Part shown: positions 12,742-58,072 of the stretch, one piece after another | How the letters are laid out: each line of letters begins with the position of its first letter | How positions within the stretch are numbered: the first letter of the stretch is position 1 | DNA from: Eledone cirrhosa | Lineage: Eukaryota | Assembly (NCBI GenBank): GCA_964016885.1 | Contig: OZ024754.1 | Coordinates: forward strand, 3,286,001-3,350,000 | Direction of reading: 5' to 3' | DNA: 64,000 nucleotides | Position numbers and translations under genes: made by a program | The notes under the pieces: generated by a model | Told to the model about the DNA's origin: nothing | Databases searched by the model: none | Seen by the model: the letters and a program-made list of their open reading frames with translations, nothing else

Positions 12742-13995
12742 GTAAGTTGTTTTATTTATATTGTAGATTATTTCATAAATTTACACGACATACCTATATA
12801 TATATTGACTATTAAATATTTGATTAGGGACACAGTTTCTATATATTCTGTGTTGTTTAGTTTAATTAGATGGCGAAATTAATGTAAGTATTGAAATATG
12901 AAATATTTCTGTTGGTTAATTATTGTATATAGATGTAGACAGCAAATAACGTTGAATGTATTTAGTTTTTGGAGCCGAGAATATCTCACATATATACCAG
13001 GATTGATGGATATATAAAGAATCAGATAAAATTGGACATTTACGTTTTGATATATTAATGGTTTGCATAAGAGAAACCCTATTTTTAAGTCAAGGCTGAA
13101 GAAGGAGTGGACCAACCACCCGCTTAATAGTAATAATAATAATAATAATGAAATGATTGTGCACAGTGCTCAGGTGCACCACAACTCATCAAAGGTGCAT
13201 GTATAGTACATAGAATAATGTACAAAGTTTAACTGTTGGTTCTTGTATCGATTTCCATCTATTGTAGCCCCATGAAGGGAATCTATTCTGTGTATGTGTG
13301 GTGTAGATTTTAAAGAATTACAGTCGGAGATATATTAGAGTTAAAGAGACTTCAATTTTAAATTACTAATGCGGTTTCATGTGGTACAGGATGTTAACAT
13401 TTAACCATTCTTGATAACAACCTACCTGAAACCACCATGGGTTTATGATCGAAAACTGTTTAAATTAAAATGTTTATATTTATATTAAAATCTTCCAACA
13501 CAATTTTATTTAGGAAATTTTTATTAAATAAGGTTTTTTTAAATAAAATTTAAATAGCTTATCAATGAAATGGTTAATTATTTAATTAAATTCTTCAAAT
13601 TTTTTAAAATTAATTAATACACATAGACGGTGTATTTCATTAGAAATGTGGTTATAAAAAAAAGGGTAGGAAATATTTTAATGGCAACTGTTGTACTTTG
13701 GTAGAATATAGAATTAAGTTTCTATAGTCAGGCTTGTCTAATGACGTGGGACGGGCTGTCTGACCCATGCTAGTATGGAAAATGGACGTTAAACTGTGAT
13801 ATGGTATTGTGTGTTTAGTTTAATTGGGCAACATGAATTAATGTAAGTATTGTAATATTAGAGTTTGTACTTTGATGTTTGTGAAACTGGAATAGATATA
13901 ATGTCCTACATAATTGATGTGGCATTGTCTAGTATAAAATATTGTATTGTTGTATATATAGTGTTGTGTATATATATATGTATATATATTATATT

Positions 13996-15300
13996 GTTGT
14001 GAGGCAATTACAGGAAAAGTACCTAGCTAAAAGTAAGCCACTCTACTTGGCATTTGTCGACCTTGAGAAAGCCTTTGACAGAGTTCCACGTGCAGTAATC
14101 TGGTGGGCTCTTAGAAAACTAGGAGTAGATGAATGGCTTGTGAAAGCGGTACAAGCCATGTATAGGGGAGCAGTCAGCAAAGTTAGGATTGGCAATGAGT
14201 ATAGCGAGGAATTTAGCGTACAGGTTGGGGTCCACCAGGGCTCTGTTCTTAGCCCTCTCCTGTTCATCATAGTCCTGCAGGCAATAACGGAGGAGTTTAA
14301 GACCGGATGCCCATGGGAACTCCTGTATGCTGATGACCTCGCACTCATAGCTGAATCTATGGTAGAACTAGAGAATAAATTCCAAACCTGGAAGCAGGGA
14401 CTAGAGAGAAAGGGCCTCAAAGTCAACATGACAAAGACTAAGGTCCTTATAAGTAGACGAGAAAACAGAACCCAGATCCCCTCAGGGAAATGGCCTTGCT
14501 CAGTATGTAGGAAAGGTGTAGGTAGGAACTCCATTCTCTGCCCCAAATGCAAACAATGGGTACACAAGAGATGTAGCGGGATCTCAGGAAGCTTAATTAA
14601 GAATGTAGGATTCACATGCAGCAGCTGTGCTGAAACAGCAAGCAAACAGCCACAGGAAACAAGTACCACCAATCTCTGGGAGGGCCCTGTAGAAACAGTA
14701 GACAGCTTCTGCTACCTAGGTGACCGAATTAGCAACGGAGGTGGGTGCTCAGAAAGTACAATAACTAGGGTAAGAACGGGATGGAAGAAGTTTAGGGAAC
14801 TACTACCACTGCTAGCTGCAAAAGGCTTCTCCCTCAGAATGAAAGGCAGACTGTATGATGCGTGTATCCGAACAGCGATGTTGCATGGTAGTGAGACCTG
14901 GGCGCTGAAGGTGGAAGACTTACGTAGATTAGAGAGAAACGAAGCCTGCATGCTCCGATGGATGTGTAACAGTAATATACGTGAACGACAAAGCATAAAT
15001 GAATTGAGAGAGAGACTGAGCATAAGAGGAATCAAATGCTGCGTGCAGGAGAGGCGGTTACGCTGGTATGGACATGTGATGCGTATGAAGGATGACAGCT
15101 GCATAAAAAGGTGCAGAGCACTAGAAGTTGATGGAAACCGCGGAGTGGGGAGACCCAAGATGACTTGGGATGAGGTGATAAAAGCCGACCTTACCCAACT
15201 ACACCTCTCAAAGTCAATGACACACGACCGTGACTTCTGGCGTCACGCAGTAATACAGGGTACCCGACCTCCCATGGGTACATGCTGAAGCATATAAACA
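13996..15300 (+). mobile_element. 5'-truncated RTE-clade LINE, reverse transcriptase C-terminal part with uninterrupted frame
   Basis: ORF contains LAFVDLEKAFDRVPR, GVHQGSVLSPLLF, LLYADDLAL and RRLRWYGHVMRM...GRPKMTW. An internal Cys-rich PHD-like finger is present. There is no endonuclease domain or genuine start, and it begins within a (TA)-rich tract. Confidence 0.92.
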
Positions 15301-52507: not shown

Positions 52508-53408
52508 GCTTATCTATATATATATATTTAAGAGTTAAACAAGATTCAATGAATACATCAAAGAATATATATATATATACAATAGAATTATTTATAATTG
52601 AAAGGTATCACCTCAACTATGAACAAATAATAAACTATAATCTTGGTATATTATGATCAATACATATATATATAGTTGAAAATTCTGACCTCTTTAAGTT
52701 TAATTATAAGGCCGGTTGATACTTTAGGCACTCAAACTATTTAACAATAAATTCTTTAATTATTATAAATTATATTATAGAAGCTTTGTCAATATTATAA
52801 GTAATGTTGGTAAAGATTACCTTCGTTGGGATATAAACATTATATATATATATTTTCTTTCTTTCTCGTGTGTCGTAAATCCTTTAAATTTGTTTACATT
52901 AAATTTGAATTTTAGAAATTTAACATAACTATATTATAATATTAATACAAATATCTATTAACTTTTAAAACCTAAAATATGATTTTTTACCCTGAAATAA
53001 CATGCATTAAATATTTTGAAAATTAACCGCCAACTATATTATATAGAAATCTGTGTGTATAGAAACTTGAACATAAATTACTCCCCTTTTGTCTCTCTCT
53101 CTCTCTCTTTAATCATCTTTCATCTGTCTTCTCAAGCCACATACTAAATATGTCATCACATCAGCTGTTTCTTCCTCTGTTTTCCTTTCCCTCCTCTTTC
53201 TCTAGTAGTTTTTAAAAATTAAAAGTTTATAACTGTTATATTGATACCATGTATTTCTTAAAATATATTACACGCACCCTCTCTATTGTTTGTATTACGT
53301 TATCTCATGTTATCAATATTAGGTTATAAATATCGAGTTTTGTCATAAGTTAATCACTACCTTGATTAAATCTTAACCATCTACCATGTCAGGGTATGTC
53401 ATGTATCA

Positions 53409-53481
53409 TTTTATTTTATCTGATGAGGACGTACTGTTGAACTTAATTCAGTACCTCTGAAATATGTATAATAAAATAAAA
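53409..53481 (+). ncRNA. Type I hammerhead, family C
   Basis: Stem I TTTTATTTTAT/ATAAAATAAAA, CTGATGA, stem II GGA-C-GTACTG/CAGTAC-C-TCT, GAAA, stem III ATATGTAT, AUA site. Confidence 0.75.
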
Positions 53482-53612
53482 TTGATCACAAGAATATCTA
53501 TTTTGTTAATATTTTGAATTAATATTATATATATATACACACACATAAGCTTATGTATGTATATATATATAAATATATATATAATATATATATATATACA
53601 CATATGCTTATG

Positions 53613-53643
<31 letters not shown>

Positions 53644-53672
53644 GCTTATGTATATATATATATACATATGCT

Positions 53673-53716
<44 letters not shown>

Positions 53717-53789
53717 CATACATATGCTTATGTATATATATATATATGTATATATATATAAATATATATATAATATATATACATATGCT

Positions 53790-53834
<45 letters not shown>

Positions 53835-54119
53835 ACACACACGCACGCACGCACGCTTATATATATATATATATATATAATATATTTAAAAACACACAGA
53901 TACATGCGGACACACACATATATACATGAATGCATCCGCACCCAACTGTGAGTTAAGGGTGCCAACTTCACCGATGTTGCTCAATGAATGACTGGGACAG
54001 ACCAATTCAGTTTGAACCAGACTGAACCAGTATCAGAGTTAAAAATACATTATGAAGAGAGAAGAAACATTTAGATATAATTAGTAATAAAATGTATCAT
54101 ACCTAAACTGTTCCTAAAT

Positions 54120-54207
54120 TCCTCGACTACGTAGTTTCGTGGCATAAACAAAAACAATATATCAAAGATATAGAGTCCTTGTGAGGTCTGCCAACTTATC
54201 AAGAGGA
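54120..54207 (-). ncRNA. Type I hammerhead ribozyme, U3:A8 variant (inverted copy)
   Basis: Reverse complement of copy 1 with one substitution in a stem II sub-loop. Confidence 0.78.
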
Positions 54208-54347
54208 TACCTCATTTTACTAGTCTCAAGAACGCGTCTACACGACGTGAGAAAGAATCCCAAAAGGCGGAGGGGGAGATAGTCACGCGATATAACGGTC
54301 GAGAAACAGAGCTAAAGACGCGTTCTTGAGACTAGTAAAATGAGGTA

Positions 54348-54435
54348 TCCTCTTGATAAGTTGGCAGACCTCGCAAGGACTCTATATCTTTGATATATTG
54401 TTTTTGTTTATGCCACGAAACTACGTAGTCGAGGA
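54348..54435 (+). ncRNA. Type I hammerhead ribozyme, U3:A8 core variant (copy 1)
   Basis: Stem I TCCTC/GAGGA, core TTGATAA...GAAA, stem II GT(T)GGCA/TGCCAC, palindromic stem III ACTACGTAGT. GUC site, predicted cut after 54430. Confidence 0.8.
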
Positions 54436-54938
54436 ATTTAGGAACAGTTTAGGTATGATACATTTTATTACTAATTATATCTAAATGTTTCTTCTCTCTT
54501 CATAATGTATTTTTAACTCTGATACTGGTTCAGTCTGGTTCAAACTGAATTGGTCTGTCCCAGTCATTCATTGAGCAACATCGGTGAAGTTGGCACCCTT
54601 AACTCACAGTTGGGTGCGGATGCATTCATGTATATATGTGTGTGTCCGCATGTATCTGTGTGTTTTTAAATATATTAATAACTCCCTCTGGTCGAGCAAT
54701 CTTTGAAGTGTGGGGACAACTGGAAAGCTTCCATTACTCATACTTCTCGCCTTCTTCACTACCTCTTCTACGGCCTCGATATGAATACCCCCTCCGCCTC
54801 CGTGGTATTTTCTTCGTGGTTATAAGAGGCTTAGCTCTGTTTCTCGACCGTTATATCGCGTGACTATCTCCCCCTCCGCCTTTTGGGATTCTTTCTCACG
54901 TCGTGTAGACGCGTTCTTGAGACTAGTAAAATGAGGTA

Positions 54939-55026
54939 TCCTCTTGATAAGTTGGCAGACCTCGCAAGGACTCTATATCTTTGATATATTGTTTTTGTTT
55001 ATGCCACGAAACTACGTAGTCGAGGA
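54939..55026 (+). ncRNA. Type I hammerhead ribozyme, U3:A8 variant (copy 2)
   Basis: Identical to copy 1, shifted by 591 bp. Predicted cut after 55021. Confidence 0.8.
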
Positions 55027-55529
55027 ATTTAGGAACAGTTTAGGTATGATACATTTTATTACTAATTATATCTAAATGTTTCTTCTCTCTTCATAATGTA
55101 TTTTTAACTCTGATACTGGTTCAGTCTGGTTCAAACTGAATTGGTCTGTCCCAGTCATTCATTGAGCAACATCGGTGAAGTTGGCACCCTTAACTCACAG
55201 TTGGGTGCGGATGCATTCATGTATATATGTGTGTGTCCGCATGTATCTGTGTGTTTTTAAATATATTAATAACTCCCTCTGGTCGAGCAATCTTTGAAGT
55301 GTGGGGACAACTGGAAAGCTTCCATTACTCATACTTCTCGCCTTCTTCACTACCTCTTCTACGGCCTCGATATGAATACCCCCTCCGCCTCCGTGGTATT
55401 TTCTTCGTGGTTATAAGAGGCTTAGCTCTGTTTCTCGACCGTTATATCGCGTGACTATCTCCCCCTCCGCCTTTTGGGATTCTTTCTCACGTCGTGTAGA
55501 CGCGTTCTTGAGACTAGTAAAATGAGGTA

Positions 55530-55617
55530 TCCTCTTGATAAGTTGGCAGACCTCGCAAGGACTCTATATCTTTGATATATTGTTTTTGTTTATGCCACGA
55601 AACTACGTAGTCGAGGA
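55530..55617 (+). ncRNA. Type I hammerhead ribozyme, U3:A8 variant (copy 3)
   Basis: Identical to copy 1, shifted by 1182 bp. Predicted cut after 55612. Confidence 0.8.
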
Positions 55618-55689
55618 ATTTAGGAACAGTTTAGGTATGATACATTTTATTACTAATTATATCTAAATGTTTCTTCTCTCTTCATAATG

Positions 55690-55728
<39 letters not shown>

Positions 55729-56291: not shown

Positions 56292-56806
56292 AATAACTGT
56301 ATTGTTTCTTTCCAGAGACTATGTTGAAAAATAAACCTCATTTGGTCATTCCATGAGAGTATCTTGGTCAGCCTATGAAACTTTCAACCGACCCTCGTAA
56401 TAACCGCATTGTTTCTTTCCAGAGAGTATGTAGAAAAATAAACCTCATTTGGTCATTCCATGAGAGTATCTTGGTCAGCCTATGAAACTTTCAACCGACC
56501 CTCGTAATAACCGCATTGTTTCTTTCCAGAGAGTATGTAGAAAAATAAACCTCATTTGGTCATTCCATGAGAGTATCTTGGTCAGCCTATGAAACTTTCA
56601 ACCGACCCTCGTAATAACCGCATTGTTTCTTTCCAGAGAGTATGTAGAAAAATAAACCTCATTTGGTCATTCCATGAGAGTATCTTGGTCAGCCTATGAA
56701 ACTTTCAACCGACCCTCGTAATAACTGCATTGTTTCTTTCCAGAGACTATGTAGAAAAATAAACCTCATTTGGTCATTCCATGAGAGTATCTTGGTCAGC
56801 CTATGA
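56292..56806. repeat. 107-bp tandem repeat derived from a mariner-like MITE end (about 4.8 copies)
   Basis: TAACCGCATT recurs at 56401, 56508 and 56615. The unit is the reverse complement of the MITE end at 31054-31160. Confidence 0.9.
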
Positions 56807-57375
56807 GCCCTTTAGACGAACCTTGCTGAAGTGTTAACAAAGAAACTAACTTAAGAAGCGTAGAAATATTTAAGTTGTTAAATTAACGAAAACCAATTCT
56901 GTATAAATTGCAGTAAAATAATTTCAATATCATTTTTAAAATAATCTAGAATTAGTAATATAGATAACTTTCTATATCTTAAATCTAGTGTTTGGAATAT
57001 AACTTAACAAGATTCTTACTTAAAACTATTACGGAAGCTGTTAAAATAAATATAAACTCTTTGCAGCAGTCAATTTTCTTTCATAGAACACAAGATGGTT
57101 TTAGACGGTTTGTTATGAGAAGAATAAATGAGATAATATTTCTTACGTAAGCTTGAAGGTTGAGATTTTTTAACAAGGCAAATAAGAGATGTGTTAACAT
57201 CCATCCCTTTTCTATAGAATTAACGTTGTGCTCTTACGGCTGGAGTATTTTGGTAAATAACATAACGTGTTCCGATACTATGGATATGTGGTTAGAATGT
57301 CTTAGGAGATCAGAGAGTCACTCCAGGTAGAGCTGCTACTTCTCCGAATTGAGATATCACAGCTCCGATACTATG

Positions 57376-58072
57376 GAAAGAATCGCTGGAGATATTTGTA
57401 GCTCAGAAATCAGTCACTCCAGGTACAGCCGCTACTTCTCCGAATTGAGAGATCACAGCTCTGATTACTATGGATATTTGGTAAGAATGTCTCAGGAAAG
57501 AATCGCTGGAGATATTTGTAGCTCAGAAATCAGTCACTCCAGGTACAGCCGCTACTTCTCCGAATTGAGAGATCACAGCTCTGATTACTATGGATATTTG
57601 GTAAGAATGTCTCAGGAAAGAATCGCTGGAGATATTTGTAGCTCAGAAATCAGTCACTCCAGGTACAGCCGCTACTTCTCCGAATTGAGAGATCACAGCT
57701 CTGATTACTATGGATATTTGGTAAGAATGTCTCAGGAAAGAATCGCTGGAGATATTTGTAGCTCAGAAATCAGTCACTCCAGGTACAGCCGCTACTTCTC
57801 CGAATTGAGAGATCACAGCTCTGATTACTATGGATATTTGGTAAGAATGTCTCAGGAAAGAATCGCTGGAGATATTTGTAGCTCAGAAATCAGTCACTCC
57901 AGGTACAGCCGCTACTTCTCCGAATTGAGAGATCACAGCTCTGATTACTATGGATATTTGGTAAGAATGTCTCAGGAAAGAATCGCTGGAGATATTTGTA
58001 GCTCAGAAATCAGTCACTCCAGGTACAGCCGCTACTTCTCCGAATTGAGAGATCACAGCTCCGATATTATGG
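57376..58072 (+). repeat. 120-bp tandem repeat derived from an RTE LINE fragment (about 5.8 copies)
   Basis: Exact 120-bp period, and the unit matches 10545-10650. Confidence 0.92.

Follow-up and report, generated by a model that had tools for sequence, protein, structure and literature searches.

How did a non-coding 591-bp repeat, each unit carrying one hammerhead ribozyme motif, come to stand as a tandem behind its own inverted partial copy inside a (TA)n tract of the Eledone cirrhosa genome? We examined the window, that is, the whole stretch of 64,000 nt that was analysed, and followed the repeat through the 3.0 Gb genome. We consider it likely that the locus is a young non-LTR retrozyme insertion, in which the reverse transcriptase (RT)/endonuclease of a Penelope-like element (PLE) primed both cut target strands on one monomer RNA, itself likely circular.

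The initial annotation had described 591-bp direct repeats with an inverted partial copy upstream, flanked by (TA)n and lacking a real ORF, and the layout of the locus bears this out (Table 1). Comparison of position i with i+591 gave 0 mismatches along the whole direct arm, the upstream piece reverse-complements the unit with a single mismatch, at 54182, and (TA)n is present at both outer ends. The unit has a GC content of 41% and, read as a circle, has stops in all six frames; the window's ORF list holds no frame of at least 150 codons overlapping the element. Across the family, arm junctions mostly show overlaps of 0-11 nt. The partial units had been read as the product of rolling reverse transcription. 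Both cDNA arms do stop variably, which fits that reading, but the boundary at 54316 is merely the stop point of this copy; the real fixed points of the unit are two start sites, at unit positions 195 (site A) and 360 (site B). The window copy ends in B on the inverted arm and in A on the direct arm. The inverted piece is better read as a second, separately primed arm than as a broken 5' end.

Table 1 Features of the element and tandem arrays elsewhere in the window.
Feature	Position	Strand	Basis or remark
Left (TA)n-rich target tract	53552..53877	.	sequence
Inverted arm, unit 516-591 + 1-362, reverse complement	53878..54315	-	alignment to unit
Outer end of inverted arm, start site B (unit 360-362)	about 53878-53880
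Head-to-head arm junction	54315..54316	.	blunt at this copy
Direct arm, 2.33 identical 591-bp units	54316..55693	+	self-comparison
Outer end of direct arm, start site A (unit 195-196)	55692-55693
Right (TA)n target tract	55694..55719	.	sequence
Type I hammerhead 1	54349..54434	+	motif scan; predicted cut after 54430
Type I hammerhead 2	54940..55025	+	motif scan; predicted cut after 55021
Type I hammerhead 3	55531..55616	+	motif scan; predicted cut after 55612
Type I hammerhead of inverted arm	54121..54206	-	motif scan; predicted cut at 54125
Predicted 591-nt self-excised monomers	54431..55021; 55022..55612	+	predicted hammerhead cuts
Long hairpin unit 125-177, then internal start site A (unit 195)	54440..54510	+	predicted fold
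Internal copies of start site A	54510; 55101
Long hairpin unit 286-349, then internal start site B (unit 360)	54601..54675	+	predicted fold
Internal copies of start site B	54675; 55266
Tandem array 107 bp x4.8	56292-56806		no hammerhead
Tandem array 120 bp x5.9	57375-58087		inside 279-codon open frame 57331-58170; no hammerhead
Tandem array 80 bp x13	29743-30787		no hammerhead

The annotated type I hammerhead was recovered once in every unit (unit 34-119), with predicted cuts at its GUC sites, and the minus-strand hammerhead of the inverted arm is an addition to the initial annotation. Our motif scan of the whole window found five type I hammerheads, four in the element and one in an unrelated neighbour. 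The core reads UUGAUAA, the U3-A8 variant, and not CUGAUGA. Stem I is CCUC/GAGG; beyond the core come stem II, bulged at unit 47 and lengthened by 44 nt, then GAAA, a palindromic stem III and the GUC site. Stem III could form 3-4 pairs and, being palindromic, can pair with a second copy. An Rfam scan at the gathering score and at E<=10 returned no hammerhead match and only chance miRNA matches on TA repeats, a miss that is likely due to the U3-A8 core and the long stem II. Judged on sequence, the motif is not a chance one, because the genome holds 7,300 exact matches of the ribozyme 3' 24-mer against 0 for the reversed control, and because a sister family keeps 41 of 42 ribozyme positions (p=3e-5). 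Core positions are nearly invariant across 126-132 insertions.

Folding of the predicted monomer differed between the strands, with z=-6.9 against shuffles for the ribozyme strand and z=-1.1 for the opposite strand, and the predicted helices are partly kept in the sister family. A long predicted hairpin precedes each end site by about 10-20 nt. They lie 165 nt apart, and this A-to-B stretch is the equivalent of the Penelope 'tail'. The predicted circle pairs unit 190-199 with 102-111 (window 54505-54514 with 55008-55017). According to the fold model, such pairing of site A with the ribozyme 3' half would block cleavage; the sister family retains 8 of its 9 pairs.

Other copies proved abundant genome-wide, with ends at two fixed unit points. 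The best unit matches are 98-100% identical and spread over many contigs, the median divergence from the majority sequence is 0.8% (133 insertions), and the longest arm measures 4,433 nt, or 7.5 units. Together with the exact ribozyme halves, these copies confirm the young, dispersed, non-coding tandem hammerhead family that had been proposed. The sister family (580 nt; L209-L228, e.g. G000:C4:289451908) is 73% identical overall, and its identity around the two end sites is 87% and 79%; the high identity at ribozyme and end sites suggests selection on these parts. A search for copies in which stem II is shortened gave 8 matches (L201-L208), which have lost parts of its extension; L205 and L206 represent tandem units with the same deletion there. 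Target-site duplications of retrozymes, when present, exceed 4 bp; here (TA)n hides them, and non-TA 5' flanks are duplicated in 1 of 21 cases (L014). At L014 the target, (TA)n included, is directly duplicated over about 50 bp, and at L084 an inverted flank of about 30 bp lies outside both TA tracts.

Insertions of this architecture occupy over 170 unlinked loci, each with alleles and junctions of its own. This spread is hard to reconcile with a satellite or fold-back made at the DNA level, by recombination or rolling-circle DNA replication, or with an assembly artefact at the locus, as are the combination of fixed 3' ends with variable 5' stops and the strand asymmetry of both folding and the A>G excess described below. 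Identical units can mislead assemblers, and the junction at this locus is known from the assembly alone; contigs of run X2, possibly the assembly's own source, show loose (TA)n ends at 54510 and 54675. We regard such an origin as highly improbable, and at the family level it is largely refuted.

We next consider where the insertions end. For outer ends there are two places, unit 195 (A) and 360-366 (B), both closing on a TA step that continues the register of the target; inner (5') ends lie scattered. Among the outer ends listed, 101 share a single junction at 195 and most others lie at 360-362. Junctions numbered 1,473 for A and 1,063 for B, counted on the forward strand only; loose patterns count minus-strand sites several times. 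Our samples comprised the first ribozyme matches on contig C1 (50 loci), A-end picks (63), top-scoring matches (23) and B-end picks (40). We left out matches below 84% identity or 30 nt, insertions shorter than 90 nt (60 in the B-end sample), loci L055, L156 and L187, second copies of local duplications (L043, L188) and edge-cut loci (L017, L238). Complete two-armed insertions numbered 92: 87 paired A with B, 5 had one end elsewhere, and neither A+A nor B+B occurred; the A+B share was 68/72, plus 19/20 in the set picked by B ends. In the unbiased, ribozyme-picked set every two-armed insertion was A+B (22/22; P=1.3e-7 under independent choice), and one-armed ends among these 50 insertions were 12 A, 11 B and 2 other. 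Each arm passes the other arm's start site in 35 of 70 two-armed rows. The sister family gave 13 A+B and 1 B+B (L224) among 14 resolved two-armed copies.

Both arms of one insertion represent one haplotype. They differ at 8 of 2,391 shared-site comparisons (72 polymorphic sites, 61 insertions), and arms of different insertions differ at 20,503 of 149,613 (13.7%). Rare variants were found in all units (50) or in one unit (168) and seldom in between (7), which indicates that arrays were mostly made at once. Within single arms, minor alleles were fixed in all units in 241 cells and mosaic in 13. At L074, 7 A>G differences and 2 other private changes run through 7-8 pieces of both arms. The stops of the cDNAs avoid no region of the unit and show no accumulation at the ribozyme cut (unit 110-122: 2/206, with 4.5 expected, and 2/59); pieces spanning the predicted cut carry a substitution in 7 of 321 cases and an indel in none. 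Where private alleles are fixed throughout 4-8 units, the array must have regrown from a single monomer, for which a circle is the simplest form. The mosaic arrays L153, L230, L151 and L057 suggest that, in some cases, the template was a multimer or was switched, or that units recombined later. The earlier proposal of copying from a monomer or circle is thus supported indirectly by the one-haplotype arms, the all-unit variants and the unbroken cut site, and falls short at these few mosaic arrays.

The mosaics would be at home in a scheme in which a PLE enzyme uses the same two sites on an uncleaved linear multimer, with a weak or idle hammerhead and growth by template jumping or unequal DNA exchange. 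An uncut RNA would equally explain why stops do not pile up at the cut, and unprocessed RNA is the main substrate of the anole PLE in vitro, according to the portions of that study available to us (PMC11167929). We consider this scheme unlikely, given that private variants running through 4-8 units, often in both arms, require regrowth from one unit, that the rarity of intermediate variants points to arrays made at once, and that the ribozyme is kept in the sister family. It would also place A>G changes in single units, where they are rare.

This last point rests on the distribution of A>G changes on the ribozyme strand. In an unpolarised count they made up 14/50 all-unit and 8/168 single-unit variants; in young copies polarised by old ones, a list that contains a few alignment artefacts, 17/52 and 4/90; and among additional loci from the subfamily to which the window copy belongs, 7/12 and 2/36 (p=3e-4), a replicate that is not fully independent because several A>G sites are shared with the polarised set. 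The corresponding A>G:T>C ratios were 14:12 (p=0.16, not significant), 17:9 (p=0.005) and 7:2 (p=0.019). An edit on a monomer that is copied repeatedly yields all-unit changes, matching this pattern, whereas errors of rolling RT, or edits on a linear multimer, yield single-unit changes. From the A>G excess and the folding asymmetry, we take the ribozyme strand to be the RNA strand. ADAR disfavours a 5' G, and G preceded the changed A in 0/14 and 1/17 cases against a background of 28/133. No 3'-G preference was found at the changed adenosines, nor an excess in paired regions (13/21; background 80/133).

We therefore favour, with fair but not strong confidence, A-to-I editing of the template RNA as the source of the excess. 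A less probable source is RT or polymerase error, or RNA-to-RNA copying, which would leave the rest of the model standing; the ADAR context signal is weak and the unpolarised strand bias is not significant, as such a source would allow. However, errors of rolling RT are expected in single units, the near-absence of a preceding G is left without explanation, and the changes at sites 61, 71, 392, 455 and 510 recur on both T351 and C351 backgrounds.

For the enzyme, we scored 150 matches of 10,595 GIY-YIG candidates and fetched 50 loci. Loci L121-L140 represent at least six PLE families with RT + GIY-YIG frames, several of them (TA)n-targeting; their clade was judged by motif alone, from a CX4CX2C linker of the Neptune/Nematis type as described in the parts of PMC8557442 we could draw on. 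By eye, several of these families have U3-A8 minimal hammerheads, a CCGG stem III and two (TA)n ends. At L121, a 938-codon RT + GIY-YIG frame lies between repeats bearing a minimal U3-A8 hammerhead. The ends of this family, again in (TA)n, occupy two sites separated by 67 nt (2,960 and 6,574 exact junctions), and its facing pairs are one of each in 29 of 31 cases (first 52 Mb of C1; expected 43.5%; p=5e-9). The distance from cut to first site is 82 nt, as against 80 nt from cut to site A in the 591-nt unit, and its second site, TTTCTAATATAT, resembles site B. Exceptions to the one-of-each rule count against it, namely the B+B copy of the sister family and two facing pairs scored as 2+2 in the L121 family.

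BLASTN of the unit against the 50 GIY-YIG loci found no homology save one neighbouring copy and microsatellite-like matches, and no PLE protein match was found anywhere in the window. We therefore infer the partner from its footprint. The mobilisation by a PLE that the initial annotation had put forward is strongly backed by the shared two-end, one-of-each footprint in (TA)n, but homology names no partner family. The enzyme class is well supported as Penelope-like; since several (TA)n-targeting PLE families coexist and homology is lacking, any exact partner, such as the L121 family, is a candidate by footprint. At L047:4590-4740, the 5' end of a retrozyme arm abuts a tiny two-armed insertion of the L121 family, without (TA)n, and at L065 an L121-family end lies in the same TA tract as a retrozyme.

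The lack of homology also touches the question of whether the unit is simply the pLTR of an autonomous PLE yet to be found, the arrays being 5'-truncated by-products and not a self-propagating family. PLE hammerheads likewise show a U3-A8 core and a palindromic stem III (PMC4209133), matches to pLTRs are common among frog retrozymes (10.64898/2026.07.22.740005), both as far as the text at hand extends, and the GIY-YIG candidates scored were a small part of the total. In 133+40 insertions, however, the unit was joined head to tail to itself or stopped, and in 0 did it run into an ORF; subfamilies with their own alleles spread as pure arrays, the 580-nt sister family behaves alike, and the shortened-stem-II variants (8 listed) led to no coding element. 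We hold this possibility to be very unlikely.

For the preferred reading, a retrozyme copied by a PLE enzyme, we propose the following course. A read-through transcript would be cut by its hammerheads into 591-nt monomers, probably as dimers formed through the palindromic stem III. A host ligase may then close the monomer, and ADAR may edit some of its adenosines. A dimeric PLE protein would nick both strands of a (TA)n tract, whereupon one cDNA would start at site A and the other at B through 3-7 nt of TA microhomology. Both cDNAs would be extended around the template and across the cut site, end at random points and be joined head to head, often by short microhomology; survival of a single arm would leave a plain 5'-truncated tandem. 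A broader version can be advanced only tentatively: that each insertion is the fossil of a single ADAR-edited circle copied from two sites by a dimeric PLE RT, that editing writes heritable A-to-G changes which drive the evolution of the family, and that the same twin priming explains the tail and the inverted arms of all EN+ PLEs.

In LINE-1 twin priming, both target strands prime on one RNA and the inverted arm is joined by microhomology; the position of the second primer varies, and this primer limits the first cDNA. Here, by comparison, the two sites are fixed, and either arm can grow longer than one unit. The nearer relatives are the EN+ PLEs, which share partial tandems, an inverted arm, a tail at one end, (TA)n targeting and two RT start sites (PMC8557442, PMC3846280, PMC11167929), differing, in the portions of these papers accessible to us, in a tail of 30-40 nt, against 165 nt here, and in encoding a protein. 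Within the same limits, the PLE tail is optional and stands at one end of inverted insertions (PMC8557442, PMC3846280). The available text of PMC11167929 places it between two internal RT start sites, reports both target strands nicked and extended in vitro, predicts a dimeric protein, and has the anole PLE insert without need for ribozyme cleavage from start sites not homologous to the target, so that the TA microhomology present here is lacking there. Inverted copies were attributed to self-priming on an antisense template in the part of PMC3846280 consulted, whereas our data favour two primers on sense RNA. The locus has the features of PLE-type insertion, namely partial tandems, variable 5' truncation, a head-to-head inverted arm and a microsatellite target. 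It works like a PLE insertion, yet is not an autonomous PLE, because the unit is without ORF and the window without a PLE protein match.

As a retrozyme, the element shows tandem type I hammerheads, no ORF, dispersed multicopy distribution, GC below 50% and a stable fold; self-cleavage and circles are predictions. The following comparisons draw on partial texts of the sources. With metazoan non-LTR retrozymes it shares the non-coding tandem with one type I hammerhead per unit (Cervera and de la Pena 2020, PMC7229834; Li, Clavereau and Pollet 2026, 10.64898/2026.07.22.740005), as well as GC below 50%, thousands of copies, a stable predicted fold and coexisting PLEs. It differs in unit size (591 nt, against 170-400 nt in tested invertebrate retrozymes and vertebrate consensuses of up to 972), in the U3-A8 core, in the absence of pLTR homology among the 50 GIY-YIG loci, and in a predicted fold that ties the ribozyme 3' half to site A. 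The two-site, one-of-each footprint, the single-haplotype arms and the A>G excess were seen here and not in the accessible text of the metazoan retrozyme papers. Minimal PLE hammerheads (Cervera and de la Pena 2014, PMC4209133) share the U3-A8 core, the palindromic helix III and likely dimer-dependent cleavage, and differ from the 3-4-pair stem III, long stem II extension and non-coding tandem without adjacent ORF found here. In that work the U3-A8 covariant was reported in Schistosoma PLEs, palindromic stem III was linked to dimer cleavage, and PLE-type hammerheads cleaved weakly. Retrozyme cleavage was efficient in coral and mussel (PMC7229834), and in frogs it was seen in vitro for 1 of 9 dimers (10.64898/2026.07.22.740005).

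The retrozyme kind is already known, and what is unusually informative is the insertion-level evidence on mechanism. In the text available, tandem cDNA made from a circle by a PLE had been proposed (PMC7229834, PMC4209133), a model that came there without insertion-level evidence, and the making of tandem, inverted, tailed PLE insertions was named an open question (PMC8557442). The family offers countable evidence in its one-of-each starts, single haplotypes, unbroken cut site and all-unit A>G changes. It also supplies material for in vitro work, namely a compact 591-nt substrate and a 938-aa candidate enzyme, and points to a way in which RNA editing could lead to inherited changes of DNA. A literature search found no paper that treats this family, twin priming by PLEs, the pairing rule, the haplotypes of arms or edited copies of retrozymes; bioRxiv supplements and papers under subscription lay outside it and may bear on these points.

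We made several minor observations. Runs X1 and X6, which bear other organism codes, each gave a single self-closing contig of the unit (window 54316-54906), 620-621 nt in length, at a depth of about 8; circle and tandem are indistinguishable in such contigs, and trace DNA or carry-over is as likely an origin as any other. A 451-codon open frame at 13933-15288 (+) lies in a GC-richer stretch of the window and has no match to PLE proteins. Directly upstream of the element stands an unrelated hammerhead repeat (52587-53537, +), whose hammerhead (53416-53474) has a canonical CUGAUGA core, a stem I of about 12 bp and an AUA site. No PLE frame linked to this repeat was found in 14 loci. Its copies are 84-98% identical (2,529 candidates) and end in (TA)n, and some have inverted arms (L273, L275).
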